From assembly GCA_964514965.1 (NCBI GenBank), contig CAZETV010000001.1:963063-995062 (forward strand): a stretch of 32,000 nt of DNA, written 5' to 3'. The stretch is from Candidatus Hadarchaeota archaeon (lineage in GTDB: Archaea > Hadarchaeota > Hadarchaeia > Hadarchaeales > Hadarchaeaceae). This document shows positions 1,709 through 32,000 of this stretch, piece by piece. How positions within the stretch are numbered: position 1 is the stretch's first letter; each line of letters begins with the position of its first letter. Both the position numbers and the translations under genes were made by a program. The notes beneath the pieces were generated by a model. The model was not told the DNA's origin, did not search any database, and was given only the letters and a program-made list of their open reading frames with translations.

Positions 1709-1745
1709 GGTACAAACCTGGGTTCAAACTCTTAATACCACACCA
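1709..1745 (+). repeat. Left copy of an imperfect ~37-bp direct repeat (GGTACAAACCTGGGTTCAAACTCTTAATACCACACCA)
   Basis: Aligns with 3402..3437 (GGTACAAATCCGGTACAAACTCTTAATATCGCACCA), 31 identical columns of 37 with one 1-nt gap by hand alignment. Each copy contains two tandem GGTACAAA-like 11-mers. An inverted GGGTACAAATCC lies at 1847..1858. Confidence 0.65.
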
Positions 1746-15360: not shown

Positions 15361-16995
15361 TTACATTACTCCAGCACCAGGTGCCATGGGCGCGCGAGGC
15401 GGCGTTCCCCCCGTGGCTTTCTTAGCTGAGATAACATCATCTATTCTAAGGACCATCTCAGCCACTTCAGCTGCTGACTTGATTACTTGCTCTTTAACCC
15501 TCAATGGCTCTATAACCCCAGCTTCTAGCATGTCCCTGAGCTCACCAGATGGGACATCCAATCCAATTTTCGCGCCATCTTTTTCGTGCCTTGCTCTGAG
15601 GGCGACAAGAATATCGATTTGATCGAGACCCGCTGTTTCAGCAAGTGTTTTCGGTATTATCTCCAATGCATCTGCGAACGTGTTTATTCCTAAAGCTTCT
15701 TTCCCGCCAACGCTGCTGGAATAGTTTCTGACTTCCTTCGCAACTTCTATTTCCGAACTCCCGCCGCCAGTGACCGCTTTTCCATCTTCAACAACCGCTG
15801 AAACTGCCGAAAGGGCATCATGCATCGCTCTTTCTGCTTCGTCTACTACGTGCTCGGTCCCGCCCCTCAAAATGATGCTAACAGCTTTTGGGTCCTCACA
15901 CCCTTCAACAAACAACATTTTTTCGTCTGCAATTTTTCGCTCTTCGACCAAACCGGCATTGCCCAGATCCTCCGCTGAAAGGTCCTCAACAGTTGTAACG
16001 ATCTTTGCTCCACTAGCCTTGGCCAGTTTTTCCATATCTGATTTTTTGACCCTCCGGGCGGCCAAAACACCGACTTTCGAGAGGTGATGCTGTACTAGGT
16101 CGTCTATACCCTTCTGACAAAATATGACATTTGCACCTGCTGCAACTATTTTATCAACCTTTTCGCGGAGCATTTTTTCTTCCTCATTGAGAAATGTCTT
16201 GAGCTGCGTTGGATCCGTTATCTGAATTTTTGCGTCGGTCTCCGTCTTCTTTGTTTCAAGCGCACACTCCAAGAGAGCAATTTTGACACCCTCGGCCCGC
16301 TTTGGCATTTCTGGGTAAACAATCTCTTTGTCGACGATCACGCCTTTCACGAACTCTGAATCTCCTAACCCCCCTCCTTCTTGTTTTTGAACCGTTATAT
16401 GATCAATATCGGCTGTTACCGTACCATTTGTCTTCTCTACGATGTGCTTGACCGCCTGTATGGCAAGTTCAGCCAACTTTTTTCTCCCATCTCCAGATAC
16501 CCTCCCCGCCATTGCGGTCAAGGCTACATCCTGCAAAGTCTTCTCGTCGTTAATTGCAACCTGAACCGAACTGTTTTTAAGAGCCTTTATCGCCTTTTCC
16601 GCTGCTAACCGATAGCCTGAGATAATTCTAGTGGCATGGATATTTTGGTCAAGCAATTCTTTGGCTTGTTTCATGAGTTCTCCAGCTATTACAACAGAAC
16701 TTGTTGTACCATCACCCACCTCGGTATCCACGGTCTTGGCAATTTCGACCATCATCTTTGCCGCTGGATGCTCAATCTCTACCTCACCCAGAATAGCCTC
16801 CCCATCATTCGTGATAGTCACGTCACCCATACTATCGACTAGCATTTTGTCAGTCCCCTTTGGACCGAGAGTTGATCTTACGGCTTCAGCAATCGCGCAA
16901 GCTGCCATGATGTTACCTTCTCGAGCATCTTTACCTCTAGTTCTTTGAACATCTTCCTTCATGACCGCAATAGGTATTCCTCTTGTTTGACCCAT
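15361..16995 (-). CDS. ths: Thermosome subunit (group II chaperonin)
   Basis: Track ORF 15361..17085, trimmed to the ATG at 16995 ([29 protein letters not shown]...). [39 protein letters not shown] and GGGSSEIE are canonical CCT/thermosome motifs. Confidence 0.92.
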
Positions 16996-17147
16996 CAAGG
17001 TTTCATTCTCCTGAGAATTTTTCCTTTCTTTTTTGAAGAAGTGAACGATGTTATTTAAAATTTTGTGAAAACATTTAAATAACATGACTTAAAATTGCGT
17101 TTCACCCTTTAGATTATAGTATAAATTTAAAAAAATAGAAATAATAA

Positions 17148-17351
17148 TCATCTTTTGATAGGCAAAGGGCCTCTCTTAGCCTTGCATTTTTCACAAACTA
17201 GAGAATAAGTTTTATTTGTAGGATTCTCTATCCGCACCATTGATCTTTTGCCGCATTTTGGAAAGATATCTTCGTTCTCTCCGCAAAATTGGCACGCTCC
17301 CTGATTATTAACGATACAGTTTTCAAATAAACCTTTTACGTGCTCGCGTTC
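17148..17351 (-). pseudogene. Cys-rich zinc-ribbon ORF lacking a start codon (5' end apparently replaced)
   Basis: 67 open codons: EREHVKGLFENCIVNNQGACQFCGENEDIFPKCGKRSMVRIENPTNKTYSLVCEKCKAKRGPLPIKR. TAG TAA lie immediately upstream, and there is no ATG/GTG/TTG before codon 38. The upstream boundary coincides with the start of the third DUF2283 copy. Confidence 0.3.
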
Positions 17352-17558
17352 TTACTAAAGGATATTGACATCGTCTGTGATAGAGATAACGATGCCCTTT
17401 ACATCAGTTTTGGGAAGGTCCAAGAGGCAGACGATTCCGAGCTGACCGATAACGATGTGGTGGTCAGGTACAGAAAAGGCAGGATAATCGGCGTCACGGT
17501 GCTCGAGTTCTCCAAACGGCCTCTTGCCAGGATATGGGAAGGGCCAATGAGGACTTAA
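17340..17558 (+). CDS. DUF2283-family protein, third copy (5' end not homologous to copy 2)
   Basis: 72 aa from a GTG. Region 17376..17518 differs from 10799..10941 at only 4 of 143 nt by my count. No toxin-like gene lies upstream. Confidence 0.55.
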   Translation: MLAFLLKDIDIVCDRDNDALYISFGKVQEADDSELTDNDVVVRYRKGRIIGVTVLEFSKRPLARIWEGPMRT

Positions 17559-18246
17559 TGGCCCGCTTGAGTTCACGACTTATTCCGGGCGTTTGGAGAT
17601 TCACGTGAAAAAGCAGTACTGTTTAGTTATTTTTTGGGTTGTTTTCCGAAATTTCGATTTTGCCAGTCTGATGGATTTAGAAGTTCCAAAGTTGAAATAA
17701 TAGATGATTTTAAAATAGCGATGAGGAAATTGGGAAAATAATTTCAGTATTCTTAATTATGTGACGAAGCTACGAAAGACATGGATGAAGAACTACAGTG
17801 TTTCTATTAGATCAGTACTCTAGAAATCTAATGTTAACGTGTCATTGATATTTCCGTTGCCACGTTTAACAGTAGATTTGATGCTTCCGCTTTCCTTTTG
17901 ATTTAGTCTAGGTACAAATTCACTGTGTTGAATTGACTAAATAGGATAAGGCTGAAATAAGTTATTAATGCCCCGAAATGTCAGAAAGGAGCTTTTAATG
18001 GGCTTTTTTAATGTGAATCAATCACAAGCAGAAAAAGCGATTTTTATTTTTGCAATCCAAAAAAGAGTAAAATAATCTTTTATACAAAAATCATGCAATA
18101 TAAAGATTGTTTTTTTTGGTTTTTGGCCAAATAAATTACCTAATCTTTAATCTAAATTACTAAATTCTAGCATAATTTAAATATTAAATCTGTATACTAA
18201 CCAAAAGGTTTATAAAGGCTAAAATTTCGTAAAATGTGGGGGTAAC

Positions 18247-18381
18247 GTGATACTACTCACAATAACAATCGGATTGGCAGTACTGTTTTCAATAGTTCTA
18301 CCGATTGTTTATATGTGGAAGTTTATTTCTGAAGTTAAGAAAGGGTACTATACAACAGAACGTCATGAAAGAGGGGAATAA
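18247..18381 (+). CDS. 44-aa single-TM micro-protein, putative small subunit of the downstream symporter
   Basis: Below the track cutoff. GTG at 18247 after GGGGGT. Translation: VILLTITIGLAVLFSIVLPIVYMWKFISEVKKGYYTTERHERGE. Its TAA overlaps the ATG at 18381 by 1 nt. Small TM partners are common upstream of SSS-family transporters. Confidence 0.4.
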   Translation: MILLTITIGLAVLFSIVLPIVYMWKFISEVKKGYYTTERHERGE

Positions 18382-19838
18382 TGGAAGAACTAATCTTTAT
18401 TGCTGTGAGTATTCTTTACATCATTGTAATGTTAGGTTTTACCGTCTGGATGCATAAGAGAAAGTTTGTAAGGAATTTAAACGATTTCTTGATTGCTGGA
18501 TGGGCAATTGGAGGATCATTAATCGGAATGAATATGCTAGCAGGTTGGACGAATGCTTTTACAATATTTGTTAACTCAGAATTATCAGCCGTTTTCACTT
18601 TTCCAAATTATATGATTTTACTTGTCGTTGGCATAATGGTGCCGATGTTGATGGGAATTTTTATAGCCAAACCATTAAAGAGAAAATTTGCTAAAGGGTA
18701 TGGGATAATTGATTTTCTAGACAAAAGATTTAATTCAGTGTCTCTCAGGTCTTGGGGTTACATTTGCTGTATAGTCCCCGCTTTCCTAATGATTTTCGCG
18801 AATCTTTTCATGTTAGGTGCTTATGGTACTGCTTTAACTGGGATACCTTTAGAGTACCTTGTGCTGATGTTTGCAATACTTGTCATAATTTATTGCACGA
18901 TAGGAGGGTGGTGGCATGTGCTTTTCACAGATTTCGTTCAATTCATGTTCACTTTCGTTGGTATCGCTATTTTCCTGATAGTTGTGTTATCACAGTTCGG
19001 TGGAATAGAAGGGATATATAACGGCATTATGCAAGTAAATCCTGGTTTCTTTGGTTTTGTGTCGTCTATTCCGTTCTGGAAACTTGTGGTTGTTCTTTTC
19101 CTCACTATACTAGCGGGTGTTTTCGCCGCTCAGTATATCTGGATGGGCTTCCAATCAGGAAAATCAGAAAAAGAAATGAACTTCGCATTTTCTTCATTCT
19201 TCTTCGGATATCTTCCTGTGGCAGCTTTGGGTTTCGTTTCAAGTTTAGTAGCAATATCGCAAAATATTGATGTGGTGGCTGCAACAGGTTACATTGGCGA
19301 TGCACCAATAGTAATTTTGCAATATCTTCCATTCTGGTTAACCGTATTAGTATGGTTGATCATTCTCCAGTTTGCTATTACTACACTTGACACCCAACTC
19401 GTTGCTTCTTCAAGTCTGACCGAGATAGGAGTCATCAGACCAATTGCCAAGCTTAGGGGAGTTAAGCTTTCTCCTGGAAGGGAAATGTCAATCTCAAGGA
19501 TAATCATTGTGGTGTTAGGTCTCCTTGCCACTTTCTTTGCGCTGAATAAAATAGGCTTCTTAGAATATTTGTTCATGTTAGGATTTTGGCAAGTTTCGAT
19601 TATGGGCATGAACGCGCTAGGTGCTTACTGGGACAAAGTTACAAAGTGGCCAGCTATCATAGGCACAACTGTAGGTACTTTGGTGGGCGCATATTACTTC
19701 TTCATTCTAAATGATGATTTTGTTGGCTTCACGTTGATGTTGATCATATCTCTCGTGCTCATGGTAATACTGTCATATGTACCGCCCTTTAACAAGAAGA
19801 AATTTGATTTCAAAACTATGCAAGAAGTAAAGAGATAA
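18381..19838 (+). CDS. Sodium:solute symporter (SSS) family transporter
   Basis: 485 aa, about 13 hydrophobic helices. LNDFLIAGWAIGGSLIGMNMLAGWTNAFT and GIIDFLDKRFN correspond to the conserved N-terminal SSS blocks (dyflagr..g....g.sl.at..sa.t; t..efl..Ry). Confidence 0.65.
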   Translation: MEELIFIAVSILYIIVMLGFTVWMHKRKFVRNLNDFLIAGWAIGGSLIGMNMLAGWTNAFTIFVNSELSAVFTFPNYMILLVVGIMVPMLMGIFIAKPLKRKFAKGYGIIDFLDKRFNSVSLRSWGYICCIVPAFLMIFANLFMLGAYGTALTGIPLEYLVLMFAILVIIYCTIGGWWHVLFTDFVQFMFTFVGIAIFLIVVLSQFGGIEGIYNGIMQVNPGFFGFVSSIPFWKLVVVLFLTILAGVFAAQYIWMGFQSGKSEKEMNFAFSSFFFGYLPVAALGFVSSLVAISQNIDVVAATGYIGDAPIVILQYLPFWLTVLVWLIILQFAITTLDTQLVASSSLTEIGVIRPIAKLRGVKLSPGREMSISRIIIVVLGLLATFFALNKIGFLEYLFMLGFWQVSIMGMNALGAYWDKVTKWPAIIGTTVGTLVGAYYFFILNDDFVGFTLMLIISLVLMVILSYVPPFNKKKFDFKTMQEVKR

Positions 19839-19934
19839 TCGGGCACATTCTAGCCTACCTTCCGGAAGCCTTAATCTAAAGGTTAGTGTTGTGGCAAGTG
19901 CGAGGAGTGGTAAATTTATTATTGGGGAAGGTAA

Positions 19935-20210
19935 ATGATTCAGGCCACGGTAACGCTTCTAAACAAGGCCGGACTGCACGCTAGACCGGCGGCTTTGTTT
20001 GTACAAACAGCCAGAAAGTTTAACGCACAGATTTTGGTTAAGAAGGATGAGAAAGAAGCTAACGCTAAAACCATTCTAGGAATTTTATCTCTGGGAGCTG
20101 AGAGTGGTAACGTAATCACAATTGAAGCAAATGGGGAAGATGCTGAGGAAGCTGTAAAAACTCTAGTCAACTTGGTTAATATGAAGTTAGGCGAGGATGA
20201 ATCTTCGTAA
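19935..20210 (+). CDS. ptsH: PTS phosphocarrier protein HPr
   Basis: 91 aa. VTLLNKAGLHARPAALFVQTARKF holds the active-site His15 context, and ANAKTILGILSLGA is the region around position 46 (Thr here). GGAAGGT precedes the ATG. Confidence 0.88.
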   Translation: MIQATVTLLNKAGLHARPAALFVQTARKFNAQILVKKDEKEANAKTILGILSLGAESGNVITIEANGEDAEEAVKTLVNLVNMKLGEDESS

Positions 20211-20218
20211 ATGCGTGA

Positions 20219-21526
20219 TTGCACATGTTGATAAGACCCCCCTTCCTGTTCGAGTTAATATACATCGCGATATTCGCTGCGTGGGCGTGCTTGATGTCCC
20301 ACCAAAAGATATTATGCTATAACGATGGCACCAGATCTCTATACCCCGAATTTTACGAGGGACGAATGACATACACTCAATTTGCAGGCGTATTGTTCAG
20401 CATGAATATTATTTGGTTTCTCTTCGGTCTGCCTTTCGCGATGATGGTAGGGATGGTAAATTTTATGACATTGTTCATGATGAGCGACGTAATCGGGGTT
20501 CGTGCCCCCAACAAACTTTCCGCCCTGGTATTGGGGGGCGCTTGGGGTGTACTTCTTGTTTTAATTTTTCGCGGGCTTCTGACATACTCTGGGCAACTGC
20601 CGTTTAATTTTTTAATTCCTCTAAGTCTTGGTTTCGAAAAAATTTTGACTTTCTTTTCAGTACTTCCAATGGTAGCGGCGGTTTATCTATGGCGCTGGAA
20701 AATTGGGGGGATAAGCGTAATATTGGGTCTGATCTGCCAGGTAATGTTGCGATGGACAAATACGACACTTAATCCCGATATCACCACTTTGTATGTTACA
20801 TTGATTTTTCTGTTTGCAGTGGCGATTTACAAAGACTTGACAAAAAGGAAAAATGGAGAAACAACTCCCCCGCTGCAAGACTCGATTCTTGTAAAACGTT
20901 ATGCTAGAATTAGGAAAAATTGGAAATATGCTGCTATATCGGGTGCATTATTGGGCGCCGCAGTTAATCTTCTCATAATTCACTGGTGGCCCGCAGCTCC
21001 CCTTCTTGTCGAGGGGGACCGTTTTTTGGCCGCCCTCATGATTCTACCGATATGGATATGCTGGTGGTCAGCGGGGATAAATACTGGATTGACAGCTGGC
21101 ATGATGTCCCATCAAGCCCTTGGATTCACGATGGTGGCGGCATTATTGTTGCCGAGTTGGTCAGAAAATTTATTGGCGCCATTCGTTAGTGCGATTATTG
21201 GGGTTGCGGAGTTTTCCTTATTCGCACTGTTTATACCTAAATTGGCTAGAGGATTAGAAAGATTCGCTACAGTGAAAGAGGTAACTCTTGCTATGCAAAC
21301 CGTCTTGGGAGGAGCGATGGAAGTGGGTCTGACTTTTTTGGGACTTTATACTGCGTTTATTATGGCGAACACATTTGGTTTGTTTATAGTTGTTGCAGGA
21401 TACTTGACTAATGAGATACTCGGGAGGCCGATAACAAGAATGGCTGTGGCGCCCATTTCTTGCATAGCTCTTGGGGTATTGCTCAACGTGATCGCTGTGG
21501 CCGGACTAACCCTACCGGTTATCTAA
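20219..21526 (+). CDS. Polytopic membrane protein, YhfT-like by size and context (putative permease)
   Basis: 435 aa from a TTG. Alternative starts are the ATG at 20225, or the ATG at 20366 preceded by GAGGGA. At least 10 hydrophobic helices. E. coli YhfT in the equivalent cluster is a membrane protein of about the same length. Homology is not verified here. Confidence 0.5.
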   Translation: MHMLIRPPFLFELIYIAIFAAWACLMSHQKILCYNDGTRSLYPEFYEGRMTYTQFAGVLFSMNIIWFLFGLPFAMMVGMVNFMTLFMMSDVIGVRAPNKLSALVLGGAWGVLLVLIFRGLLTYSGQLPFNFLIPLSLGFEKILTFFSVLPMVAAVYLWRWKIGGISVILGLICQVMLRWTNTTLNPDITTLYVTLIFLFAVAIYKDLTKRKNGETTPPLQDSILVKRYARIRKNWKYAAISGALLGAAVNLLIIHWWPAAPLLVEGDRFLAALMILPIWICWWSAGINTGLTAGMMSHQALGFTMVAALLLPSWSENLLAPFVSAIIGVAEFSLFALFIPKLARGLERFATVKEVTLAMQTVLGGAMEVGLTFLGLYTAFIMANTFGLFIVVAGYLTNEILGRPITRMAVAPISCIALGVLLNVIAVAGLTLPVI

Positions 21527-21791
21527 TTCTCGTTTCTAAAAACCCATTTAGATCAGGCAAGTAAATTTAAAGAATTTTCACGGAGAAAAATATCGCAGGT
21601 CTGTGGGTGCGGGGTTAAGGATTTATGTATAAAAAGTGATTTAACTAATCGAAGCAATAAAAATGGGGAAACTACGTGTTCCGCATAATCAGATATATAA
21701 AGGAATCAGAAATTTGTGAAAGAACAGTTGGCTCGGGTAAAGTTATCATAATGGAACATAGCGCTCAAGATTCGAGTCAACGAAAATCCTC

Positions 21792-22229
21792 ATGGTGAAT
21801 TCATTGTGTGAAGAAAAGGGCGATATTCCAAACAATATAAAAACTGAGGAGTTTACTTTAGAAAATCGATTGGAGCTATTGAGAAAGAGCGGTCAAATTA
21901 GTGAACAAGTGCTTGCAGAAACGAAGGAAGTTAAGCAGATTATTGAAGATAAATACAAAATTAAACTCACAGAGAAGAGAAGGCGAGACAGAATGTTTGT
22001 AACTCATGTGGCATTGGCATTGCAGAGGTTAATCAAGGGTAATGAAATTGAAAAAATTTCTCCGGATATTATCGCTGAAGTTAAAGGATACCCGGAAGAG
22101 TTTGGATTTGCCAAGGAAATTGCGGATAAGATTGAAAGGAAGTTGAACGTGAAAGTTCCTGAGAGCGAGTTAGCTTTTGTCGCGGCTTATTTGTGTATAT
22201 TTCATGGAAAGATTGAACAATTTAAGTAA
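21792..22229 (+). CDS. Stand-alone PRD (PTS regulation domain) protein, YhfY-like
   Basis: 145 aa. MFVTHVALALQRLIKGNEI (His72) and LAFVAAYLCIFHGK (His138) look like the two conserved His-bearing helices of a PRD module. There is no RNA-binding or HTH domain. The start is uncertain. Confidence 0.55.
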   Translation: MVNSLCEEKGDIPNNIKTEEFTLENRLELLRKSGQISEQVLAETKEVKQIIEDKYKIKLTEKRRRDRMFVTHVALALQRLIKGNEIEKISPDIIAEVKGYPEEFGFAKEIADKIERKLNVKVPESELAFVAAYLCIFHGKIEQFK

Positions 22230-22234
22230 CTGAT

Positions 22235-23971
22235 GTGGAAACTATGCGGGAAGTTAATGCTGGCCGCAACAGAGAGGTCATTTCGCTCAAATTCAGCGGT
22301 GCGCCTACATCTCTTGGCGTTAGTATCGGCAAGACAAAAGTCTATAAGCGAGAAAGTGGGGAGGAAAAAAAAGAGCCCGTAGAAAGCGACAAAGAACTGG
22401 GTAAAGTTAGGAAAGCTATCTCAAAGTCGATACATCAGATAACGCAACTAAGAGAGGAAACATTTAAAAAATTTGGAGAAAGTAAGGCAAGGATTTTTGA
22501 CGCGCACTTGTTAATCTTAGACGATCCATCCTTAAAATCAGGCGTAGAAAAAAGAATTATTGAGGGCGAAGCTGCAGAGGTCGCTGTCCGGGAGGTTATG
22601 AACGAGATACGCAAAAGTTTCAGCTCGATGAAAAGTGAATACATGCGAGAAAGGGTTGAAGACATTGAAGACATCAAAATGAGGATACTGGGGAATTTAA
22701 GGGGGGCTGCAGGCACTTTCTTGACTCTAGAGGATAAAAGAGTGATAGTGGCGAAGGAACTCTTCCCGTCTGACACCGTGATGCTAAAGGATAAGGCCCT
22801 GGCATTCGTCACGGAAAAAGGGGGAAAAACTTCTCATGTTTCTATTATCGCCAGAACTATGGATATCCCTTGCGTGGTTGGCATTGATGGCATCTCGGCA
22901 AAGGCAAATGATGGAGACACGATCATAGTTGATGGAAATGATGGTACAGTGATTATTCACCCCACGCAAGAAGAACTTGACGTTTATCAACAGAAAATAG
23001 AACAAAATCTAATCTATAGGCGAGAACTTGAAAAAGGAAAATACGAGCCAGCTGTGACTAGAGATAGTAGAAAAATTGAAGTCACTGCTAACGTTGGAAG
23101 GCTGGAAGAAGTACCCAATGCTTTAGAAAAAGGGGCAGATGGGATCGGCCTTCTTCGAACGGAATTTCTTTTCCTAAACAGAAAAGTTCCCCCCAGCGAA
23201 GATGAGATAATAGAAGTTTTCAGGGAGATTGGGAAGAAAATGGGAGAAAAGCCCGTTATAGTGAGGACTCTGGATGTGGGGGCAGACAAGCTGCTCCCGT
23301 ATATAAAAGTAACCAAGGAAAATAACCCCTTTTTAGGAGTACGGGGGATAAGGCTTTGTTTTAAATCTGCAAAAGAAATCTTTAAAGGTCAACTAAGAGC
23401 GATTATCAAGGCAAGGAAATACTGCAATATCAAAGTAATGTTTCCGATGATCAGCACAGTTGAAGAGGTTAAGTTCGCCAAAAAAATTTTCAAGGAAGTA
23501 GCAAAAGAATTAGGGGTTCCAGCTGAAGAGATGGGAAAAATTGAGCTTGGCATAATGATCGAAACACCATCAGCAGCCCTAATATCGGATTCGCTCGCCG
23601 AGGATGTGGATTTCTTTAGTATTGGGACAAATGACTTAACTCAATATACTCTGGCGGCAGATCGAACTAACGAAAATCTTTCAGAATTATATAATCATCT
23701 TCATCCATCTGTGATTATGTTAATGGATATGACAATTAGATCTGCTCATAAAAGAGGGAAATGGGTAGGAGTTTGTGGTGAAATTGCTGGAGATTTCGAT
23801 GCTATCCCTCTTTTGATAGGTTTAGGTGTGGAAGAACTCAGCGTTGCATTTTCCCGAATTCCCGAAGTCAAGAATATGATTAGAAAAATTTCCGTTAGTG
23901 AGGCAAAAGAATTAGCAAGAAATGTTTTAAAAGCTAGAACAATTTCAACAGTTAAAAATATACTAAAATAA
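22235..23971 (+). CDS. ptsI: PTS Enzyme I (phosphoenolpyruvate-protein phosphotransferase)
   Basis: 578 aa. GAPTSLGVSIGKTKVY at the N-terminus, the GGKTSHVSIIARTMDIPCVVG phospho-His loop, GIGLLRTEFLF, FFSIGTNDLTQYTLAADR, and the VGVCGEIAGD catalytic Cys. Confidence 0.92.
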   Translation: METMREVNAGRNREVISLKFSGAPTSLGVSIGKTKVYKRESGEEKKEPVESDKELGKVRKAISKSIHQITQLREETFKKFGESKARIFDAHLLILDDPSLKSGVEKRIIEGEAAEVAVREVMNEIRKSFSSMKSEYMRERVEDIEDIKMRILGNLRGAAGTFLTLEDKRVIVAKELFPSDTVMLKDKALAFVTEKGGKTSHVSIIARTMDIPCVVGIDGISAKANDGDTIIVDGNDGTVIIHPTQEELDVYQQKIEQNLIYRRELEKGKYEPAVTRDSRKIEVTANVGRLEEVPNALEKGADGIGLLRTEFLFLNRKVPPSEDEIIEVFREIGKKMGEKPVIVRTLDVGADKLLPYIKVTKENNPFLGVRGIRLCFKSAKEIFKGQLRAIIKARKYCNIKVMFPMISTVEEVKFAKKIFKEVAKELGVPAEEMGKIELGIMIETPSAALISDSLAEDVDFFSIGTNDLTQYTLAADRTNENLSELYNHLHPSVIMLMDMTIRSAHKRGKWVGVCGEIAGDFDAIPLLIGLGVEELSVAFSRIPEVKNMIRKISVSEAKELARNVLKARTISTVKNILK

Positions 23972-24189
23972 TAAAATTTCTTTAGTTTTAAGCCAGAAAG
24001 TGTTCTTAATGTCCCATTTTCATCACTCGAATTTAATGGGCTCGACAGTTTTGAAAGAACAGCTAATCCATGCATTAGTCCATCCGAGATCGACTCTACT
24101 TGCTTCACTTCTAAAATTATTTGAGAAGTTTTTTAAGGCCCAAGGTAAAACTATTCCAATGAAAAATTAATGTATCCAGGGGTAACCTC

Positions 24190-25134
24190 ATGAAAAAAGT
24201 GCGAACTGTTTTAGGTTCTATCTCTCCTGAGACCTTAGGAATTACATCAATGCATGAGCATGTGATACTGCATAGGCCATGGTACGCGGATTCTGATGCT
24301 AATTTAGACGAGGTTAATGTCATGACCGACGAACTGATGTACTTTAAGAAGGCTGGTGGAAGTTCTCTCATAGAAAGTAGCACACCATTAAATTGGTCAT
24401 CAAAAAAACTTGGACAAGACCTGAATGATTTGGAAAATATATCTAAAAAATCTGGAATTAATATTATTCTTTCTACTGGATTTTATATTGAACCACTCAT
24501 TAACCCAATCGTGTATAAACTAGATGACGATGAGTTAGTCGAAAAAATAACTAAAGATATAAGTGAAGGTATAGAAGGAACTGGAGTCAAAGCGGGGGCC
24601 ATTAAGGTCGCCACAAGTTGGGGCCAGATAGCAAAAGTTGAAGAAAAGGTTTTGCGGGTTGCGGCGAGAGCGAGTCTAAATACAGGGGCACCAATTTTTT
24701 TACATACTAGCGTTGCAACAATGGGTATGGAAATTTTAGACATTCTGGAGAGTGAGGGAGTGGACCTTGCTCGAGTGGCTGTGGGTCATTTAGACGACAC
24801 TGCACGCATAGCTGAGAATTTTAATTCGGAGCTGGAATATCATGCGGCCATCGCTAAAAGAGGGGCATACGTCCAATATGACTCCGTTCATAAAACGAGA
24901 ACGATCCCTGATGCTCTGAGAGTTAATTTGATTGTAAACATGATTGAAAAAGGCTATGTAAAGCAAATAACATTGGGGCAAGATATTTCGAGGAAAAAAT
25001 ACTTGAAAACACATGGCGGGTATGGGTATTCTTCTCTATTGGAAGAGTTTGTTCCAGAATTATTGAATAATGGTCTTAAAGAAGAAGTCAATACAATTTT
25101 GGTTGAAAATCCGAAGAGGTTATTATCCTTTTAG
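24190..25134 (+). CDS. php: Phosphotriesterase homology protein (Php/YhfV-like amidohydrolase-fold metalloenzyme)
   Basis: 314 aa. VLGSISPETLGITSMHEHV carries the HxH metal motif. IFLHTS, VAVGHLD and ITLGQDI supply the later His, His and Asp ligands in the expected order. Confidence 0.78.
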   Translation: MKKVRTVLGSISPETLGITSMHEHVILHRPWYADSDANLDEVNVMTDELMYFKKAGGSSLIESSTPLNWSSKKLGQDLNDLENISKKSGINIILSTGFYIEPLINPIVYKLDDDELVEKITKDISEGIEGTGVKAGAIKVATSWGQIAKVEEKVLRVAARASLNTGAPIFLHTSVATMGMEILDILESEGVDLARVAVGHLDDTARIAENFNSELEYHAAIAKRGAYVQYDSVHKTRTIPDALRVNLIVNMIEKGYVKQITLGQDISRKKYLKTHGGYGYSSLLEEFVPELLNNGLKEEVNTILVENPKRLLSF

Positions 25135-25224
25135 CTTTAACACTCTCGCTCTTTATGCATAGAGACGAATTGCTTGGCAAGCTTTAGTTGCATTGATATT
25201 CCCTAACTAAATCATAAATTATAA

Positions 25225-26436
25225 TTAAAAATTGAATATTTCATTATAGAAACTTGCGCCGGACTCAGGGCGTTCCACGTTGAATACTTCAGCTATTGTA
25301 GCAGGTATGTCGGCCAAAGTTTTTCTGACCCCTAAGTTTACACCTATTTTTATATTTTCACCAGTTATCAAAAGAGGGGTATACTCCCTAGTGTGCCATT
25401 TATGCTTTGTGGGGTCATTGCCGTGGTCTGCCGTTATTATAAAAATATCTTGACTTTTCAAACGCTCTAATATTTTTCCAATACCCTTATCAACAATTTT
25501 CAACTTTTCAGCATATTTAAATGGGTCTTGTTCATGCCCCGCCAAATCGGTTTCTTGCACTGTTGCAGCGATAAATGTACTCTTATTTGATTTCATTTGC
25601 GCCAAGACAGAATTTAACACTTCATCTGTAGGGACTGCTGGTATTCTAATCGCAGTATCGCATTGTATCAAATCTTGTACTTTGCCTATCAATACGACAT
25701 TCACTCCATGCCTCCCGAGTATTGTTGGGATCTGTTTTTTTGAATCTATGCCGTAACCCATATGTCGGCACATGTAGTTCTCGTTATAAACTTCTAAAGC
25801 TGGGGTATCAACTCCAATTTTTCCACCGATTCCCTTTTTGACATTTTTTAAAATATCTCCCAAATCATAGCCTTTTGATCCAAATGCTATTACTCTAGCC
25901 ACTTTTACAGTCTCCCTAACTAATTTTTCAATTTTCATGACCTCATCAAAAGAAATATAGTCCAACGAGGCTGTCATATTGAAAACACTTCGATCAGGAT
26001 TAGTCTCAATATTATCTGCGATAACAACAGCTTCATTTACGGCCAAAATTGGTATTTTTGGGAGGGGGACCGTAACTTTATATCCTTCTTTTTCCAGTGC
26101 CTTTCTCACTTTTTTTAAATCTGTTCTGAATAGGTGTTTAATGGGGCGTTTTGGCTTAGTGCCCATTATTTCATTATGCCCATCAAATGTGTCGGCTCCG
26201 AAGTGCTTTAACATACATTTTCCAAAGCTGGCGATAGCGTTCTCGCCTACAGCGTTCATCCCGGGAATTTCATCTATATTCCCCATCCCCATTTTTTCAA
26301 AATTTCGAAGCTTCAAGCTTTTAACTTCTTTAGCTATGCTTCTTAGCGTGTTGGCACCTCTATCTCTCTTTGGTGCGTCTGGCATCTCGCCTACGCCAAG
26401 ACCATCGATAATTAGTAGAATCACTTTATTTCTCAT
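25225..26436 (-). CDS. Phosphopentomutase-fold metalloenzyme (YhfW/DeoB-like mutase)
   Basis: Track ORF ends at 26448. I prefer the ATG at 26436, after GGTGGAAATT. VILLIIDGLGVGEMPDA...GANTL at the N-terminus and IITADHGNDPTKHKWHTREYTPLLI at the C-terminus are the alkaline-phosphatase-superfamily mutase motifs shared with DeoB. YhfW versus DeoB cannot be resolved by eye. Confidence 0.72.
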   Translation of the reverse strand: MRNKVILLIIDGLGVGEMPDAPKRDRGANTLRSIAKEVKSLKLRNFEKMGMGNIDEIPGMNAVGENAIASFGKCMLKHFGADTFDGHNEIMGTKPKRPIKHLFRTDLKKVRKALEKEGYKVTVPLPKIPILAVNEAVVIADNIETNPDRSVFNMTASLDYISFDEVMKIEKLVRETVKVARVIAFGSKGYDLGDILKNVKKGIGGKIGVDTPALEVYNENYMCRHMGYGIDSKKQIPTILGRHGVNVVLIGKVQDLIQCDTAIRIPAVPTDEVLNSVLAQMKSNKSTFIAATVQETDLAGHEQDPFKYAEKLKIVDKGIGKILERLKSQDIFIITADHGNDPTKHKWHTREYTPLLITGENIKIGVNLGVRKTLADIPATIAEVFNVERPESGASFYNEIFNF

Positions 26437-26451
26437 AATTTCCACCAAAAG

Positions 26452-27639
26452 CTAATCAACGATTAAACTACCGTTTCCGTCAAATAGTCCTAGTATCTTG
26501 GGTTTGCCTCTTTGTATCCCATCAACCACTGCTATATTCGCCCTAGTAACGAACATTTGCGTTCTAAAAGAGAATATTACTGTGTCTCCAATTTTTACAC
26601 TAACTTTTGGTTTAAGGCGTAGCGTGGCATAATAATCTATGCTTCCTGGTTCAATATTTTCAACAAGCACTTTTCTTTCGGTTATTGTATCAGGATCACT
26701 GCTGACTAATGCTGCGTCTGGATTATGGCGGCTGTAGAATCCTCCTCCAAAGCAATAAGCTTTATTCCCTGATAAGTGGGAAACTTCGCTTACATACACA
26801 TAAGCTGGAATCTCGGGCTGATTTGTCAAGACATGTAAGGGCGTCGTTCCGGTTAAAGCGTGCCCTGGTTCTCCATGAGTTGCACCTTTTTCGGCTAATA
26901 ATGGTATCGTGGATGCACAGTTATCTTTAGGAGCGTTTATTTGCTGTATTTCAACGCTTAATCCTTTCTCTAATCTATCCGCGGCCCTCAGAATAGTATC
27001 AAAATTAGGGGTTGGCTCTATTCTCCCTAATTTTTCATTGTAAAACAAACATGGGAAACTAGTTACACCTACCACCTTTACATTTTCAAATCTATTTATT
27101 TTTTTAATTACATTGACAATTTTCTCTTCAGGAAAACCGCCTTCTTGATACGGATAAAAAAAGTCCTTTTTCCCCACAACTCGGACAAGCAAATTTTGCA
27201 TTAAATTTAGCTTCTTGGCGACTTTGGATATTTGTCGAGCTTTTTCTATGCTGAAGACTGTGATGACTTCAGGTTTCATTTTGAGAACATTTTCAACATC
27301 ACTTTTTGGTATCTGCACTAAATGGCCAACATGCCCTACAGGTATTCCGTGTTTATGCAATATTTTAGCTTCCTCCACGCTCACGGCTACAGCTTTCTCA
27401 ATACCAGAATTCACTATCGCCCGGGATACTATCGGGTTTCGTCCAAATTGTTTGCTCATAAAATAGAGTGAAATGTTTGCGTCATCTGCTGCCTTTTTTA
27501 TAATTCTTGCGTTATTTCTTATCGAATCTAAATCTATAACGTACGTATTGGGGGGAACTTGACCTTTTTGGTGCAATGCCGTTGATATTTTGATCAGCAT
27601 TAAGTTATTTCTGGTAGTCACATTTAGGAAATCAACCAA
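26452..27639 (-). CDS. Alanine-racemase-fold (fold-type III) PLP protein, YhfX-like
   Basis: 395 aa. YVIDLDSIRNNARIIKKAADDANISLYFMSKQFGRNP has the N-terminal barrel with the candidate PLP lysine in MSKQ. Size and position next to the mutase mirror E. coli yhfX-yhfW. Confidence 0.55.
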   Translation of the reverse strand: MVDFLNVTTRNNLMLIKISTALHQKGQVPPNTYVIDLDSIRNNARIIKKAADDANISLYFMSKQFGRNPIVSRAIVNSGIEKAVAVSVEEAKILHKHGIPVGHVGHLVQIPKSDVENVLKMKPEVITVFSIEKARQISKVAKKLNLMQNLLVRVVGKKDFFYPYQEGGFPEEKIVNVIKKINRFENVKVVGVTSFPCLFYNEKLGRIEPTPNFDTILRAADRLEKGLSVEIQQINAPKDNCASTIPLLAEKGATHGEPGHALTGTTPLHVLTNQPEIPAYVYVSEVSHLSGNKAYCFGGGFYSRHNPDAALVSSDPDTITERKVLVENIEPGSIDYYATLRLKPKVSVKIGDTVIFSFRTQMFVTRANIAVVDGIQRGKPKILGLFDGNGSLIVD

Positions 27640-27780
27640 GGTTGTTCGCCTCTTAATTCATGTTTTTGGCCCGCTTCATTTTTATTATTTACTTCTTAGG
27701 CCCCACTTCTTCTCCGGGAATTGTTCTGAAATCTAGGACGTTTTTCTGATGATCTGCGCGAAATAGCTTGTGCACCTGTA

Positions 27781-28155
27781 TTAAGCCAGGCCATGTTTCT
27801 TCAGCATGGCAGGAAGGGCAATTTGTAAAAACTTGTTGAGCGAGTCCGATGCAAATGCACTACCAAAAACTACTTTTCCATCCATCACCGCGTTTTCTAT
27901 TTCTTTTGGATTTAATTCTTTAACAATGAAGCATTTTTGATATCCCAAAATAGCTGTAGGGATAGCTAAAATTCCACTTCCAGTCCAACAGCAGCCAATT
28001 ATGTAATCTGCTTCACCATTTTTTAATAAATTTACTGCCTCTATTTCTGAAAGACCTATTAAAGATTCTACATTTTTATATGGTAACTTGTTCACTTCTT
28101 TAGCAGCTGATTCTTTACCCGCACCTATAAAAACGAGTTTAATTTTATTTTTCAA
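27781..28155 (-). CDS. Small DUF2620-like protein (YhfU-like)
   Basis: 124 aa. TTG start after AGAGGT. KLVFIGAGKESAAKEV...GEADYIIGCCWTGSG. Size and position between the two PLP-enzyme genes match E. coli yhfU. Homology is not verified. Confidence 0.45.
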   Translation of the reverse strand: MKNKIKLVFIGAGKESAAKEVNKLPYKNVESLIGLSEIEAVNLLKNGEADYIIGCCWTGSGILAIPTAILGYQKCFIVKELNPKEIENAVMDGKVVFGSAFASDSLNKFLQIALPAMLKKHGLA

Positions 28156-28167
28156 TTACTTAACCTC

Positions 28168-29289
28168 TTATTTTTTGATATCTTTAATAGACTCCTTAAG
28201 TATGCGGATAACGGTGTCAGGACCAGCCTGGAATGGAACCACTCTAAGCATGTAGTCCATTAATTCTGGAGCATATTCTTTGAATCTTTTTGACTCTGGG
28301 ACTATTGCTACGGTGGATTCATACCGTGACTCACAACCAACAAGGTGCGATTGAGCTCCGTATTTCCATACTTTATTCGAAACTTTTTCAGCGGTAGGTT
28401 CCTTAAGTTTAACAAGAATTTGTCTTATATGGGAGTTCGAAACAGCCGCCCAATCTACGCCATCAACTTCTCCATCATTAAGACGTTTGCAGACTTCGTT
28501 CACGACTCTATCCTGTATCGCTCGCAATACTGGCGCGTATACCAAGGATCTCAAGGTATCCATAGCTTCTGGCCCCTGAACTTGGCAACCCCCGGAATAA
28601 TTATCTTCATTTATTTTATCAATCAGTTTACACCCTTTCTCACTACCGGCCAAAACGAGGCCCATGCCCGGGGGCGCTAGAAGTTTGAATAATGAAAATG
28701 CTGATATGTCGGCCCCTAGTTGAACACCAATTTTTTCTACACGCATTGCGGCATAATCTTCGTCAGTCATAATTAGCGGGTCGTATTTAGTTGACTTGAC
28801 TGCATTTATTACTTCTTCTAAACGATATTTATCTGTAATTCTGTCGTACATATGGTCAATAAAAACTGCCTTTATATTTTCATTAATCACATTTTCCAAT
28901 CCATCTAACTTGTTGTAGTCCGAATAGGCGAGTTTGAGACCCATTATGCGTATCGTGGTCGATGTTGTTTTGTAAACAGGCCCATCATGGACAAGAATTT
29001 GATCCCCTGGATTAAGAGCGGCCATAAACATTGCTCGTATCGCCCCAGTCCCAGACCCTCTGACAAGAACCGCTGCTTTTACATCGAAAAATTCGGCCAG
29101 ACAATTTTCTACCTTGTTTGTAAAAATAGGTTTTCTTAGAGGCATTGCTAAACCGTAATCTCCCGCTTGTAAAATTTCAAGCCCATTAAAGTGGTCGCAT
29201 ATAGTATCGACAAGTTTAAACTGCATCTTAATGGCCTGTTCCAAAGAAAGTTGTTTGAAAGGATAAATTTTGACCATTTTTCTATCCAT
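28168..29289 (-). CDS. Fold-type I PLP-dependent enzyme, YhfS-like
   Basis: 373 aa. GGTGA precedes the ATG. AAVLVRGSGTGAIRAMFMAALNPGDQILV... and ADISAFSLFKLL (candidate PLP-Lys strand) fit the aminotransferase/SelA-like fold. Family placement is by context. Confidence 0.5.
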   Translation of the reverse strand: MDRKMVKIYPFKQLSLEQAIKMQFKLVDTICDHFNGLEILQAGDYGLAMPLRKPIFTNKVENCLAEFFDVKAAVLVRGSGTGAIRAMFMAALNPGDQILVHDGPVYKTTSTTIRIMGLKLAYSDYNKLDGLENVINENIKAVFIDHMYDRITDKYRLEEVINAVKSTKYDPLIMTDEDYAAMRVEKIGVQLGADISAFSLFKLLAPPGMGLVLAGSEKGCKLIDKINEDNYSGGCQVQGPEAMDTLRSLVYAPVLRAIQDRVVNEVCKRLNDGEVDGVDWAAVSNSHIRQILVKLKEPTAEKVSNKVWKYGAQSHLVGCESRYESTVAIVPESKRFKEYAPELMDYMLRVVPFQAGPDTVIRILKESIKDIKK

Positions 29290-29602
29290 TTATTTCACCA
29301 TCAATCTTCATATAAATACTTCTATTAATAGTTTGGGTTCTGTATAAATTATTATAATTTTTTATCATGGTACCGCATATGTATTGTGTTTTTAGATAAA
29401 AATTCCGAAAAATTTGAGTTCCGATAAGAATGAACAAACAGTTTTAATGAAAATATCGCGGTTTACTAAAGTAAATCGAGAAATCAAAAAACTCATGTCG
29501 GGTTGAAAGGTACCGCCCAGTGATAAGTTGCCTATTTTTTGGGGCATGAATTTCAAAGCTTGATTAAGATGAATTGAGAGAGATGTTTATTCTTGAATTT
29601 TT

Positions 29603-32000
29603 TTATAGATAACGTTGTTTCTCTGCCTCTTCCGCACGAAGCGCGGCGTGGGCAGCGGCTATTCTCGCGACCGGGATTCTGAAAGGTGAACATGATACAT
29701 AATTCAAACCAAGTTCGTGGCAAAACTTTATCGATTCGGGATCTCCCCCATGTTCGCCGCATATTCCTATCTCCAGATCGGGCCTCCTACCCTTGCCAAG
29801 CTCCGCACCGATTCGCATGAGCTTTCCCACGCCTTTCTTGTCCAACGTCTGGAATGGGTCCACATCGAGTATTCCCTGGGCGATGTACTTAAACATGAAT
29901 TTTCCTTCAGCGTCATCCCGTGAGTAAGCGTATGTCATCTGCGTCAGGTCATTGGTTCCAAACGAGAAAAATTCAGCGTACTCTGCGATTTCGTCGGCCG
30001 TGAGAGCGGCACGAGGTACTTCTATCATGGTACCGAACTTGTAAAACACATCGATCCCGTGTTTAGACATCACTTCGCGCGCTACCCGCTCAAGTTGCTC
30101 GCGCACCACCTTAAGTTCGTTGACGTGACCAACAAGGGGAATCATGATTTCCGGTCTCGGGTCGCTGCCTTCCCGCTTGAGTTCACATGCCGCCTCGAAT
30201 ATCGCCCGAACCTGCATCTCATTGATGTCGGGGTGGATTATCCCAAGCCTGCATCCTCGGAGCCCCATCATCGGGTTGGCCTCCCGCATTTCCTCGACCC
30301 GCTTCAAAAGTTTCTCCTCGGCTTCGAGTTCGGCTGGTTTCTCCCTGTTCATTCGTCGCGTAATCACCTCTTCCAGCAACTCCTCGTACTTGGGCAGAAA
30401 TTCATGCAAGGGTGGGTCGAGGAGCCTTATCACCACAGGCAGGCCGTTCATCTCCTTCAAAATTCCCTTGAAATCACCCTTTTGAATCTCGAGCAATTTT
30501 CCGAGAGCGTCTCTGCGCTCATCCTCTGTCTCGGCGAGTATCATTTGGTGGACGAGCGGCAGTCTCTTCTCCTCGAAGAACATGTGCTCAGTCCGACACA
30601 ATCCTATCCCTTGAGCTCCAAGCTCCCTTGCTCGTTTAGCATCATGCGGATAGTCGGCGTTCGCCCAGTTCTGCAGTCGTTTGAACTCGTCAGCTGAAGA
30701 AAGAAGTTTTTTGAACTCGACTGATATTTGCGGCTCTATCAACGGTGCCTCGCCAAGTATGACCTCGCCGTTTGAGCCGTTTATCGTGATTGTATCGCCT
30801 TCTTTAACTGTTACCCCATTCACATCGAACAATCGCTTATCCGGGTCTATCTTGATGGACTCACAACCGACTACTGCGGGTTTCCCCATCCCTCTCGTTA
30901 CCACTGCCGCATGGCTTGTCATTCCCCCTCTAGACGTGAGAACTCCCTGTGAGGCGATTATTCCCCCCACATCGTCCGGGCTTGTTTCCGGACGAACGAG
31001 TATGACTTTTTCTTTTTTCCCGCCCATCTCTTTTGCTTGCTCGGAATCAAACACAACTTTTCCAACCGCAGCACCCGGGCTAGCGTTAAGACCTTTCGCG
31101 ATTACTCGGACGTCAGCTTTCAGGTCTACCTGTTTATGTAACATTTGCTCAATTTGTTTAGGGTCAATCCTCAGGACGGCCTCTTCTTGGGTTATCAATC
31201 CTTCCTCAGCCATATCAACCGCTATTTTAACCGCAGCCTGAGCAGTCCTTTTTCCAGCTCGCGTCTGAAGCATGTAGAACTTCCCTTGCTCGACCGTGAA
31301 CTCAACGTCCTGCATCTCTCTGTAATGTTGTTCAAGTTTTCTTGCGATGTCGAGAAGCTGCTGGTAGAGGTGTGGAGCTTTTTCCTCAAGTTCTGCAATC
31401 TTAAGGGGAGTCCTAACTCCAGCTACTACATCCTCCCCTTGGGCGTTGAACAGGAATTCGCCGAAAAGTTTCTTCTCACCAGTGGCGGGATTGCGAGTAA
31501 AAGCAACTCCTGTTCCAGAGTCGGCCCCCATGTTTCCAAACACCATGGTGACAACGTTAACCGCAGTATACAGGTCATGAGGTATCTTGTAGAACTCGCG
31601 ATACTCCTTTGCCCGCTTTGTGTTCCAGGACTTGAAAACTGAGATTATCGCCCCTCTGAGCTGTTCATGTGGGTCATTCGGAAATTTCTCACCTTTTTCC
31701 TCTATTATTTGTTTGAATTGTCTGACTATTTCCTTCAGGTCTTCGGCTTTCAAGTCGGTGTCTAGCTTGGCCCCAACTTTGCTCTTGCGCCCATCAAATG
31801 CCGCCTCAAACTTTTTACCTTCGACCCCGAGCACTATCTTGCCGAACATCTGAATGAACCTGCGATAAGCGTCGTAGGCGAACCGCTCGTTTTTAGTCCG
31901 TTTTGCCAGCCCCTCAACACTCTCATCGTTAAGGCCGAGGTTGAGAATAGTATCCATCATGCCCGGCATCGAGAGCATGGAGCCAGAGCGAATGGAAACG
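29603..32000 (-). CDS. ppdK: Pyruvate, phosphate dikinase (partial; N-terminus lies beyond the window end)
   Basis: The frame stays open to nt 32000 (…VSIRSGSMLSMPGMMDTILNLGLND). GGMTSHAAVVTRGMGKPAVVG is the phospho-His loop; also GLCRTEHMFF, FFSFGTNDLTQMTYAYSRDD and ICGEHGGDPESI. Confidence 0.92.
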   Translation of the reverse strand, partial: VSIRSGSMLSMPGMMDTILNLGLNDESVEGLAKRTKNERFAYDAYRRFIQMFGKIVLGVEGKKFEAAFDGRKSKVGAKLDTDLKAEDLKEIVRQFKQIIEEKGEKFPNDPHEQLRGAIISVFKSWNTKRAKEYREFYKIPHDLYTAVNVVTMVFGNMGADSGTGVAFTRNPATGEKKLFGEFLFNAQGEDVVAGVRTPLKIAELEEKAPHLYQQLLDIARKLEQHYREMQDVEFTVEQGKFYMLQTRAGKRTAQAAVKIAVDMAEEGLITQEEAVLRIDPKQIEQMLHKQVDLKADVRVIAKGLNASPGAAVGKVVFDSEQAKEMGGKKEKVILVRPETSPDDVGGIIASQGVLTSRGGMTSHAAVVTRGMGKPAVVGCESIKIDPDKRLFDVNGVTVKEGDTITINGSNGEVILGEAPLIEPQISVEFKKLLSSADEFKRLQNWANADYPHDAKRARELGAQGIGLCRTEHMFFEEKRLPLVHQMILAETEDERRDALGKLLEIQKGDFKGILKEMNGLPVVIRLLDPPLHEFLPKYEELLEEVITRRMNREKPAELEAEEKLLKRVEEMREANPMMGLRGCRLGIIHPDINEMQVRAIFEAACELKREGSDPRPEIMIPLVGHVNELKVVREQLERVAREVMSKHGIDVFYKFGTMIEVPRAALTADEIAEYAEFFSFGTNDLTQMTYAYSRDDAEGKFMFKYIAQGILDVDPFQTLDKKGVGKLMRIGAELGKGRRPDLEIGICGEHGGDPESIKFCHELGLNYVSCSPFRIPVARIAAAHAALRAEEAEKQRYL

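Follow-up and report, generated by a model that had tools for sequence, protein, structure and literature searches.

Enzyme I and HPr of the phosphotransferase system inside a Yhf-type gene cassette in a 32-kb stretch of a hadarchaeal chromosome

The yhfSTU-php-yhfWXYZ cluster of Escherichia coli K-12 (b3376–b3383) has been an orphan for decades, and a literature search covering these genes, DUF2620 and the SFCGS/DUF431x families brought up no work on the function of YhfT, YhfU or YhfY. Within the phosphoenolpyruvate (PEP)-dependent phosphotransferase system (PTS), the PTS-Ntr branch and the dihydroxyacetone kinase DhaKLM use Enzyme I (EI) and HPr-type proteins that act without a sugar-translocating Enzyme II (EII) component, the EIIC. 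Bacterial-type PTS genes are also known in archaea, where they come together with EII: in the haloarchaeal fructose PTS, EI and HPr are encoded with EIIA, EIIB and EIIC alongside (PMC2405797). The stretch analysed here, called the window below, is 32 kb long and belongs to a contig (CAZETV010000001.1; at least 1.03 Mb) assigned to Candidatus Hadarchaeota, and the subject is a gene island at window positions 18247–29289. Each of its component families is known already; what appears to be new is that, in an archaeon, EI and HPr genes stand within a Yhf cassette and that the 32 kb examined contain no EII.

The island is made up of two convergent gene groups, one on the plus strand from the 44-aa membrane ORF to Php and one on the minus strand with YhfS, YhfU, YhfX and YhfW (aa, amino acids; ORF, open reading frame; PLP, pyridoxal phosphate). 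The reading order on the plus strand is that of the following list:

18247–18381, plus strand: single-pass membrane ORF of 44 aa, overlapping the start codon of the next gene by one base

18381–19838, plus strand: divergent sodium:solute symporter (SSS) transporter of 485 aa (PF00474, 1.4e-12; TIGR00813, 70 bits, below the cut-off)

19935–20210, plus strand: HPr phosphocarrier of 91 aa (PF00381, 4.7e-30; TIGR01003, 99.8 bits against a cut-off of 47.9)

20219–21526, plus strand: polytopic membrane protein of the YhfT family, a probable permease (PF10797, 2.2e-57), with its start probably at ATG 20225

21792–22229, plus strand: YhfY-like stand-alone protein of 145 aa with a single PTS regulation domain (PRD; PF00874, 3.3e-18) and no other domain

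22235–23971, plus strand: PTS Enzyme I of 578 aa, or 575 aa from the start at 22244 (TIGR01417, 585 bits against a cut-off of 341.7)

24190–25134, plus strand: Php-like amidohydrolase of the PTE family, 314 aa (PF02126, 6.2e-63; NF007373, 187 bits)

25225–26448, minus strand: YhfW-like metalloenzyme of the phosphopentomutase family (NF009049, 473 bits against a cut-off of 254), with the catalytic-type Thr87 kept

26452–27639, minus strand: YhfX-like fold-type-III PLP enzyme with an alanine-racemase N-terminal and a YhfX-like C-terminal part (PF21279, 1.8e-32; PF01168, 4.8e-16; Lys63)

27781–28155, minus strand: YhfU-like DUF2620 protein of 124 aa (PF10941, 3.3e-18) with an invariant Cys56

28168–29289, minus strand: YhfS-like fold-type-I PLP enzyme (PF22475, 7.2e-24; PF01053, 3.6e-12; Lys202)

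The families were assigned with curated Pfam and NCBIfam profiles, including the Yhf-specific Pfam models, and by BLASTP against the E. coli K-12 proteins. All ten ORFs named in a preliminary description of this DNA were found where it had placed them, and each matched the family given there when compared with the profiles of the Yhf, PTS-HPr, PEP-utiliser and PRD families, while some of the starts that it listed are likely slightly too early (YhfT beginning at ATG 20225 and, according to the gene calls, EI at 22244, YhfW ending at 26436 and YhfS at 29277). The likeness in gene content to yhfS-T-U-php-W-X-Y, also proposed there, was borne out by the family-specific profile matches and the BLASTP results: the island has one homologue each of E. 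coli YhfS (40% identity), YhfT (28%, in a match spanning 436 aa), Php (33%), YhfW (38%) and YhfX (40%), all aligned over near full length, and of YhfU (40%) and YhfY (29%), which gave partial-length matches. The proteins are of similar size to those of E. coli and keep the catalytic Lys, Cys, Thr and His residues. In contrast to the E. coli and other bacterial cassettes, the island stands in an archaeal host, is split into two convergent operons and adds EI, HPr, the SSS transporter and the 44-aa ORF, while no YhfZ homologue was found in the window either by BLASTP and hidden Markov model (HMM) searches or by looking for the HTH_41 and YhfZ_C domains on the window ORFs.

Both PTS proteins passed the curated models as complete and are interleaved with the Yhf genes, as had been claimed: the HPr stop lies 8–14 nt upstream of the YhfT start, and the PRD gene ends 5 nt upstream of EI. 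The EI has the N-terminal HPr-binding, the mobile-His and the PEP-binding C-terminal domains (PF05524, PF00391 and PF02896) with the catalytic residues H201 in GGKTSH and C514 in CGEIAGD, and it is a member of the PTS Enzyme I family with a predicted PEP-dependent autophosphorylation and transfer to HPr. The active-site His15 of HPr is present within GLHARP, while position 46, which is the HPr kinase site Ser46 in Firmicutes-type HPr, is Thr in the island protein and Asn in the Thermoprotei HPr; Ser46 is not needed for PTS phosphotransfer. The absence of EII from the window, noted before on inspection, held in the searches: the Pfam PTS_EII* models run on all sizeable ORFs detected no EIIA, EIIB or EIIC, and phmmer with 16 seeds covering every PTS family gave no match in the window. 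This separates the island from the archaeal PTS described above and from a locus of a Thermoprotei metagenome-assembled genome (MAG; L047, 10001–16125) with a complete canonical PTS, where the EI–HAD–HPr genes neighbour those for a SIS-domain protein and for EIIC, EIIB and EIIA of the Lac/Chb family; the sugar-specific EII adjoins EI/HPr in those systems and is lacking in the island. What they share is a bacterial-type EI plus HPr in an archaeon, and the HPr proteins of the island and of Thermoprotei are both without Ser46. The island differs from PTS-Ntr and DhaKLM as well, since these have EIIA-type domains (EIIA-Ntr and DhaM), while the PRD protein is the sole candidate acceptor in the island.

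A census of 36 bacterial Yhf loci, made with HMMs built from the window and the E. coli proteins, gave Z, Y, U, T, S, X and W as the core genes, while php was missing from seven loci, five of which were otherwise complete cassettes. The small PRD protein YhfY was present in all 34 loci that had sequence over its usual position, and YhfZ in 32 of the 36. No canonical EII was detected inside any of the 36 cassettes; homologues occurred twice within ±10 kb of flanking sequence, once in a separate operon for N-acetylmuramic acid (L011) and once as a Glc-family EIIBC upstream of yhfZ (L025). Most bacterial cassettes rely on EI and HPr encoded elsewhere. PTS genes within the cassette also occurred in bacteria, namely in a Clostridia MAG (L013, order Z–HPr–EI–X–W–Y–U–S–T) and in a Fusobacteriaceae MAG (L018, order Y–U–T–php–S–X–W–HPr), showing that the arrangement is not limited to archaea. 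There are thus at least three independent cases of a Yhf cassette travelling with HPr, two of them with EI too, and this recurrent co-location makes the PTS link itself a recurrent one and points to a functional dependence of the cassette on a PTS relay. The link between the PTS and the orphan YhfY that the preliminary description had suggested was strengthened in this way: YhfY is a core gene in bacteria, it is PRD2-like (see below), and HPr lies inside two bacterial clusters. The island and the loci L013 and L018 together give a testable handle on the function of the E. coli cluster. Loci L037 and L038 (Negativicutes and Bacillota MAGs) had two YhfT paralogues and yhfU at the far end of the cluster, with no YhfZ detected in the sequence retrieved.

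In an alignment of 18 members of the small PRD family, H72, R79 and E126 (numbering of the window protein) were the sole invariant residues. Two phospho-histidines, H72 and H138, had been put forward as candidates; H72 is invariant, while the position of H138 is not conserved in the family and this residue was rejected. The second canonical PRD histidine position is occupied by Tyr133 in the island protein, by Asn in E. coli and by Tyr in several Bacillota. The family profile scored 42 bits against PRD2 of LicT and 20 bits against PRD1, and H72 fell opposite the position that carries Asp in 1H99, the structure of a LicT mutant; this position is His207 of LicT, and PRD2 is the LicT domain phosphorylated by HPr. 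The PRD2-like profile and the lone invariant histidine fit a direct phosphotransfer from HPr to YhfY onto one histidine. The YhfY-like protein shares with the BglG/LicT regulators the PRD fold and an invariant His–x6–Arg motif aligned with H207 of LicT PRD2, but differs from them in having a single PRD, no CAT RNA-binding or DNA-binding domain and no second phospho-histidine (Tyr133). Because it consists of a single PRD and no other domain, it is PRD-related, but stands outside the BglG/LicT-type regulator family. Comparative evidence that ties the orphan Yhf cassette to the PTS through such a one-histidine stand-alone PRD protein appears to be new. In the two organisms in which the island was found (see below), the ratio of nonsynonymous to synonymous substitution rates (dN/dS) for the PRD gene was 0.45, with the changes clustered in the N-terminal extension.

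A hidden EIIA/B/C set made up of YhfY, YhfU and YhfT was considered because in many Bacillota the genes for the PRD protein, DUF2620 and YhfT lie side by side, and it was followed up with PDB profiles, relaxed Pfam searches, AlphaFold, Foldseek and hhalign. For YhfU it was refuted. The family has the motif D-Y-x-x-G-x-C-x-T-G-x-G with an invariant Cys after the third β-strand, and its profile weakly matched five RpiB/LacAB-type PDB structures, aligned on the catalytic Cys motif. An AlphaFold model computed from the single sequence (predicted local distance difference test, pLDDT, 74; predicted template modelling score, pTM, 0.70) had RpiB/LacAB-family isomerases as all of its top 11 Foldseek matches in the PDB, including 3qd5, 5ifz, 3s5p, 1nn4, 1o1x and 4u8f (probability 1.0, TM score about 0.6), while no EIIB fold was present among the top 50. 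With hhalign, YhfU aligned with E. coli RpiB over the full length (P = 0.003), Cys56 standing opposite Cys66, and gave no match to the EIIB/EIIA seeds UlaB, Lac-IIB, FruA and ManX. The Pfam model LacAB_rpiB was matched by 3 of 17 YhfU members, the best of these matches (E-value 0.065) falling short of the gathering threshold, and the model Gly_rich_SFCGS (PF14272) was matched by 12 of the 17 and more strongly. YhfU as an EIIB was therefore rejected on account of the RpiB-like fold, the Cys placed after β3 and the missing EIIB match. According to the model, YhfU has an RpiB-like isomerase fold and a predicted isomerase activity, being a distant relative at most: the five-stranded α/β fold is shared and the Cys after β3 aligns with the catalytic Cys66 of RpiB, while the protein is shorter (about 120 against about 150 aa) and falls under the Pfam LacAB_rpiB threshold.

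The identity of the window YhfT to bacterial members was 25–31%, and that to the 55 homologues found was ≤30%; a word-index search with YhfT alone gave two proteins, the wider set coming from an alignment query. The confident AlphaFold model based on an alignment of 54 sequences (pLDDT 89.9, pTM 0.88) shows an internal two-fold repeat and found no significant fold match in the PDB with Foldseek (best E-value 0.3, TM score ≤0.26), and the YhfT profile had no match to eight EIIC/EIID seeds in hhalign or to the PDB sequences. The idea of YhfT as an EIIC thus received no support, its model matching no solved or seeded EIIC, and the tempting but wrong reading of YhfU and YhfT as a hidden EIIB/EIIC pair is removed. 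Both predicted fold assignments, the RpiB-like one of YhfU and a YhfT model that matches no solved structure, appear to be new. A comparable assemblage is the Enterococcus faecium cassette (CP101129) with the order SFCGS–DUF4312–DUF4311–DUF4310–amidohydrolase–DgaE-type PLP lyase–aldolase–BglG regulator (PMC11934601). It follows the same logic of composition as the island, with a small Cys protein related to YhfU, an amidohydrolase, a PLP enzyme of fold type I, a PRD regulator and orphan membrane proteins, but its membrane proteins and enzymes differ, the regulator is of the full BglG type, a PTS EIIC gene lies nearby and no homology to YhfT was detected. The Yhf and the SFCGS/DUF431x cassettes may be sister systems.

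The reading preferred here, to which we give a probability of about 0.5, is that EI and HPr are present in the island since the Yhf cassette is intrinsically PTS-dependent via YhfY, with a relay from PEP over EI and HPr to the PRD protein gating a catabolic pathway. The phosphoryl group would pass from PEP to H201 of EI, then to H15 of HPr and finally to H72 of the YhfY-like protein, whose phosphorylation state would switch the pathway on or off. In bacteria the PRD protein probably works together with the neighbouring regulator YhfZ; because YhfZ is missing from the island, the target in the archaeon would be another one, presumably the YhfT permease, one of the enzymes or an unlinked regulator, and an EI and HPr of its own would have been needed once the cassette was established there. 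The SSS transporter and YhfT would import a compound that Php as a lactonase or amidohydrolase, YhfW as a phosphomutase, YhfU as an isomerase and the PLP enzymes YhfX and YhfS would break down. Judging from the enzyme families, the substrate is probably derived from an amino sugar or a sugar acid and phosphorylated. Relatives of Php hydrolyse phosphorylated sugar lactones (Korczynska et al. 2014, as cited in PMC10971088), and the island Php reached 137 bits, below the cut-off, with the phospho-furanose lactonase model NF045706. The 44-aa ORF, without a match in Pfam or NCBIfam, is by its position possibly a small accessory subunit of the symporter. The SSS transporter was kept in the second organism carrying the island (L051) with a dN/dS of 0.14 and was not found in any of the 36 bacterial Yhf loci. 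Taken as a whole, the comparison suggests a cassette that needs a PTS relay with a one-histidine PRD acceptor; what is shown is the set of genes with their families and folds, how they are conserved and selected, and how they compare with other loci, while the step from HPr to the PRD protein, its effect on regulation and the kind of compound degraded are what we infer.

Several points weigh against this reading. The usual output, YhfZ, was not found in the window and no alternative target was identified, which is the weakest link; the module had been called PRD-controlled, and of this the PRD protein is indeed present, while control stays presumptive with no visible output in the absence of YhfZ. 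The inspected sequence is 32 kb long, and EII genes or a regulator may lie elsewhere, the contig measuring at least 1.03 Mb. The YhfU model was computed from one sequence with a pLDDT of 74, and within the island it is the PRD gene that is under the weakest constraint (dN/dS 0.45). Finally, a regulatory-only role leaves the phosphate source of the presumed phospho-intermediates unexplained, there being no kinase in any cassette.

This last point is met by an explanation in which EI and HPr, perhaps via the PRD protein, supply the phosphate of the substrate, forming an EII-less PTS uptake system or kinase that follows a DhaKLM-like logic with YhfT as the membrane partner. It agrees with the lack of a kinase in both the window and the 36 bacterial cassettes, with the membership of YhfW, the RpiB-like YhfU and Php in families acting on phosphorylated sugars, with the strong purifying selection on EI and HPr, with the missing YhfZ that leaves a purely transcriptional role without visible output, and with the position of the PRD gene, which adjoins yhfT or yhfU in most Bacillota loci; DhaM offers a precedent. 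We nevertheless regard it as unlikely. Neither fold nor sequence marks any island protein as an EIIA or EIIB, and YhfT is without similarity to any EIIC. PRD domains are, to our knowledge, solely regulatory phospho-acceptors, with no known case in which one passes phosphate on to a small molecule. In addition, the RpiB-like DhuI (4u8f) is described as acting on 4-deoxy-L-threo-5-hexosulose-uronate, and the phosphorylated substrate is itself a presumption. Somewhat less credible still is the more specific proposal that phosphorylated HPr, directly or via YhfY, delivers the phosphoryl group to the substrate as it crosses the novel-fold permease YhfT or later, in a hitherto unrecognised kind of PTS-dependent pathway without Enzyme II; if true, the archaeal island would be a minimal self-sufficient EII-less system of EI, HPr, PRD protein, YhfT and enzymes.

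The origin of the island was approached through its composition and its relatives. The GC content at third codon positions (GC3) is 0.37 in the island against 0.48 in the flanks, and the relative synonymous codon usage of the island correlates with that of the flanks at 0.57 and with that of the Yhf clusters of Thermoanaerobacter and Tepidanaerobacter at 0.84–0.88. One codon-usage signature runs across the whole island, including EI, HPr and the SSS transporter, which has the same low GC3 as the rest. A scan of the GTDB species representatives with the YhfT alignment gave 34 loci, all of them bacterial (Enterobacteriaceae, many Bacillota, Atopobiaceae, Fusobacteriaceae, one alphaproteobacterium and Coprothermobacter), and therefore the cassette is of bacterial type. 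The best bacterial identities of YhfS, YhfX and YhfW were 46–52%. Among 1.84 billion proteins, no full-length representative exceeded 46% identity to EI, whose top named matches were archaeal (Thermoprotei, Thermoproteota/Korarchaeota and Caldisphaera MAGs), with bacterial sequences interspersed; the island HPr was most similar to that of Thermoprotei among the HPr proteins compared. A neighbour-joining tree of EI, built with the donor lineage in view, was star-like with the island EI on its own long branch, and neither the tree nor the exhaustive search with its ≤46% identity allowed a donor to be named. An acquisition from bacteria, as first proposed, is thus in line with the bacterial-type Yhf enzymes and the foreign codon usage, but it lacks a close donor and the nearest named EI proteins are archaeal ones encoded in canonical PTS operons. 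The island is older than the split of the two archaeal populations that carry it; it is foreign-derived, the transfer being old and the island long resident in the archaeal chromosome.

The nearest relatives of the island YhfX, with 56–58% identity, are solitary genes in Hadesarchaea-type contigs, an affinity that is no more than a hint of the host lineage. These solitary genes (L004–L010) adjoin a sugar ABC transporter and a GlmA-type GH35 gene, and in L010 (535–9914) genes of the ADP-dependent kinase and glucosamine-6-P-isomerase families lie near the YhfX gene. Such Hadesarchaea-type neighbourhoods hint that YhfX-family enzymes act on amino sugars.

The foreign composition, with a GC3 of 0.37 and codon usage closer to the Firmicutes Yhf clusters than to the flanks, is also what would be seen if a bacterial contig had been mis-joined into an archaeal one, and the left junction at 17086–17415 (330 bp, towards the thermosome gene) is covered by the source contig alone. 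Such an artefact is highly improbable in view of two independent sequences. The Logan assembly of run SRR14802574 is 100% identical over window positions 17416–31317 and thus covers the island, the right junction and 1.7 kb of the flanking, flank-like pyruvate,phosphate dikinase (PPDK) gene. Contig JABAOC010020914.1 (GCA_012975005.1), which is from another organism and a different sample, is colinear with window positions 18123–29792 at 85–91% (about 88%) nucleotide identity and shares the ten genes and the junction into PPDK, its apparent gaps being runs of N. A YhfX protein of identical sequence is on record at NCBI from a contig of 1,030,738 bp. The archaeal affiliation of the nearest named EI relatives and the closeness of HPr to the Thermoprotei HPr argue in the same direction, as does the absence of any bacterial homologue closer than about 52%. 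Between the two organisms, dN/dS was 0.09–0.20 for HPr (0.10), EI (0.20), YhfT, Php, YhfW, YhfX, YhfU, YhfS and the SSS transporter, and the genes are therefore maintained by selection. The island is real and under purifying selection in at least two populations, and it adds to archaeal biology a PTS relay without a sugar-specific EII in the 32 kb examined.

It could be argued that EI and HPr are the general PTS proteins of the archaeon, serving a canonical EII encoded elsewhere, in which case their position in the island would say little beyond PRD-type cross-talk. The nearest named EI relative, from the Thermoprotei MAG (46% identity), does stand beside a complete Lac/Chb-family EIIC/EIIB/EIIA set, the inspected sequence is 32 kb of a 1.03-Mb contig, and the EI and HPr used by most bacterial Yhf cassettes lie outside them. 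On the other hand, in the island both genes are interleaved with Yhf genes at a spacing of 5–14 nt, have the foreign codon usage of the island and are conserved with it in the second organism; two bacterial lineages arrived at the same co-location independently, and neither the 18 kb left of the island nor the 2.7 kb that the window shows on its right contained an EII. This explanation is accordingly considered doubtful, and intrinsic PTS dependence of the cassette via YhfY is preferred to it.

The flanks are archaeal, as described earlier: they include a thermosome (NF041083, 758 bits) and the ribosomal protein eL43 (PF01780, 1e-19), and the host is therefore an archaeon. A DUF1922-type protein had also been reported next to the island, but the plus-strand ORF at that place belongs to DUF2283, and the zinc ribbon on the opposite strand has no DUF1922 match. 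The features bordering the island are:

15361–17085, minus strand: thermosome with an N-terminal extension of 30–37 residues beyond the profile, the true start being probably an internal Met (MGQTRGIPI…)

17148–17342, minus strand: CxxC…CxxC zinc-ribbon reading frame without a usable start codon, which may be a gene remnant

17340–17558, plus strand: DUF2283 ORF, abutting the upstream end of the zinc-ribbon frame on the opposite strand

17560–18246, no strand: AT-rich non-coding spacer of about 690 bp at the left border, without a convincing ORF, which separates the DUF2283 gene from the island and may be an integration border or a promoter region

29603–32000, minus strand: PPDK (TIGR01828, 1227 bits), with the model matched from position 96 on, so that either the gene leaves the end of the window or its N-terminus is disrupted

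Scans of the window with Rfam and for tRNA found no RNA or tRNA genes. Farther from the island, a β-phosphoglucomutase-family HAD hydrolase (TIGR02009, 165 bits) is encoded directly upstream of a GH65 phosphorylase/hydrolase of 799 aa (11265–14422, plus strand), an arrangement suggestive of a maltose/trehalose/kojibiose phosphorylase pair. A DUF438–hemerythrin–PAS_10 protein in the archaeal flank (8026–9237, plus strand) looks like an oxygen/iron or redox sensor, and the gene at 780–1727 (minus strand) encodes an unusual combination of an ATP-cone, an Mrr-type restriction endonuclease and an AF1548-like C-terminal domain.

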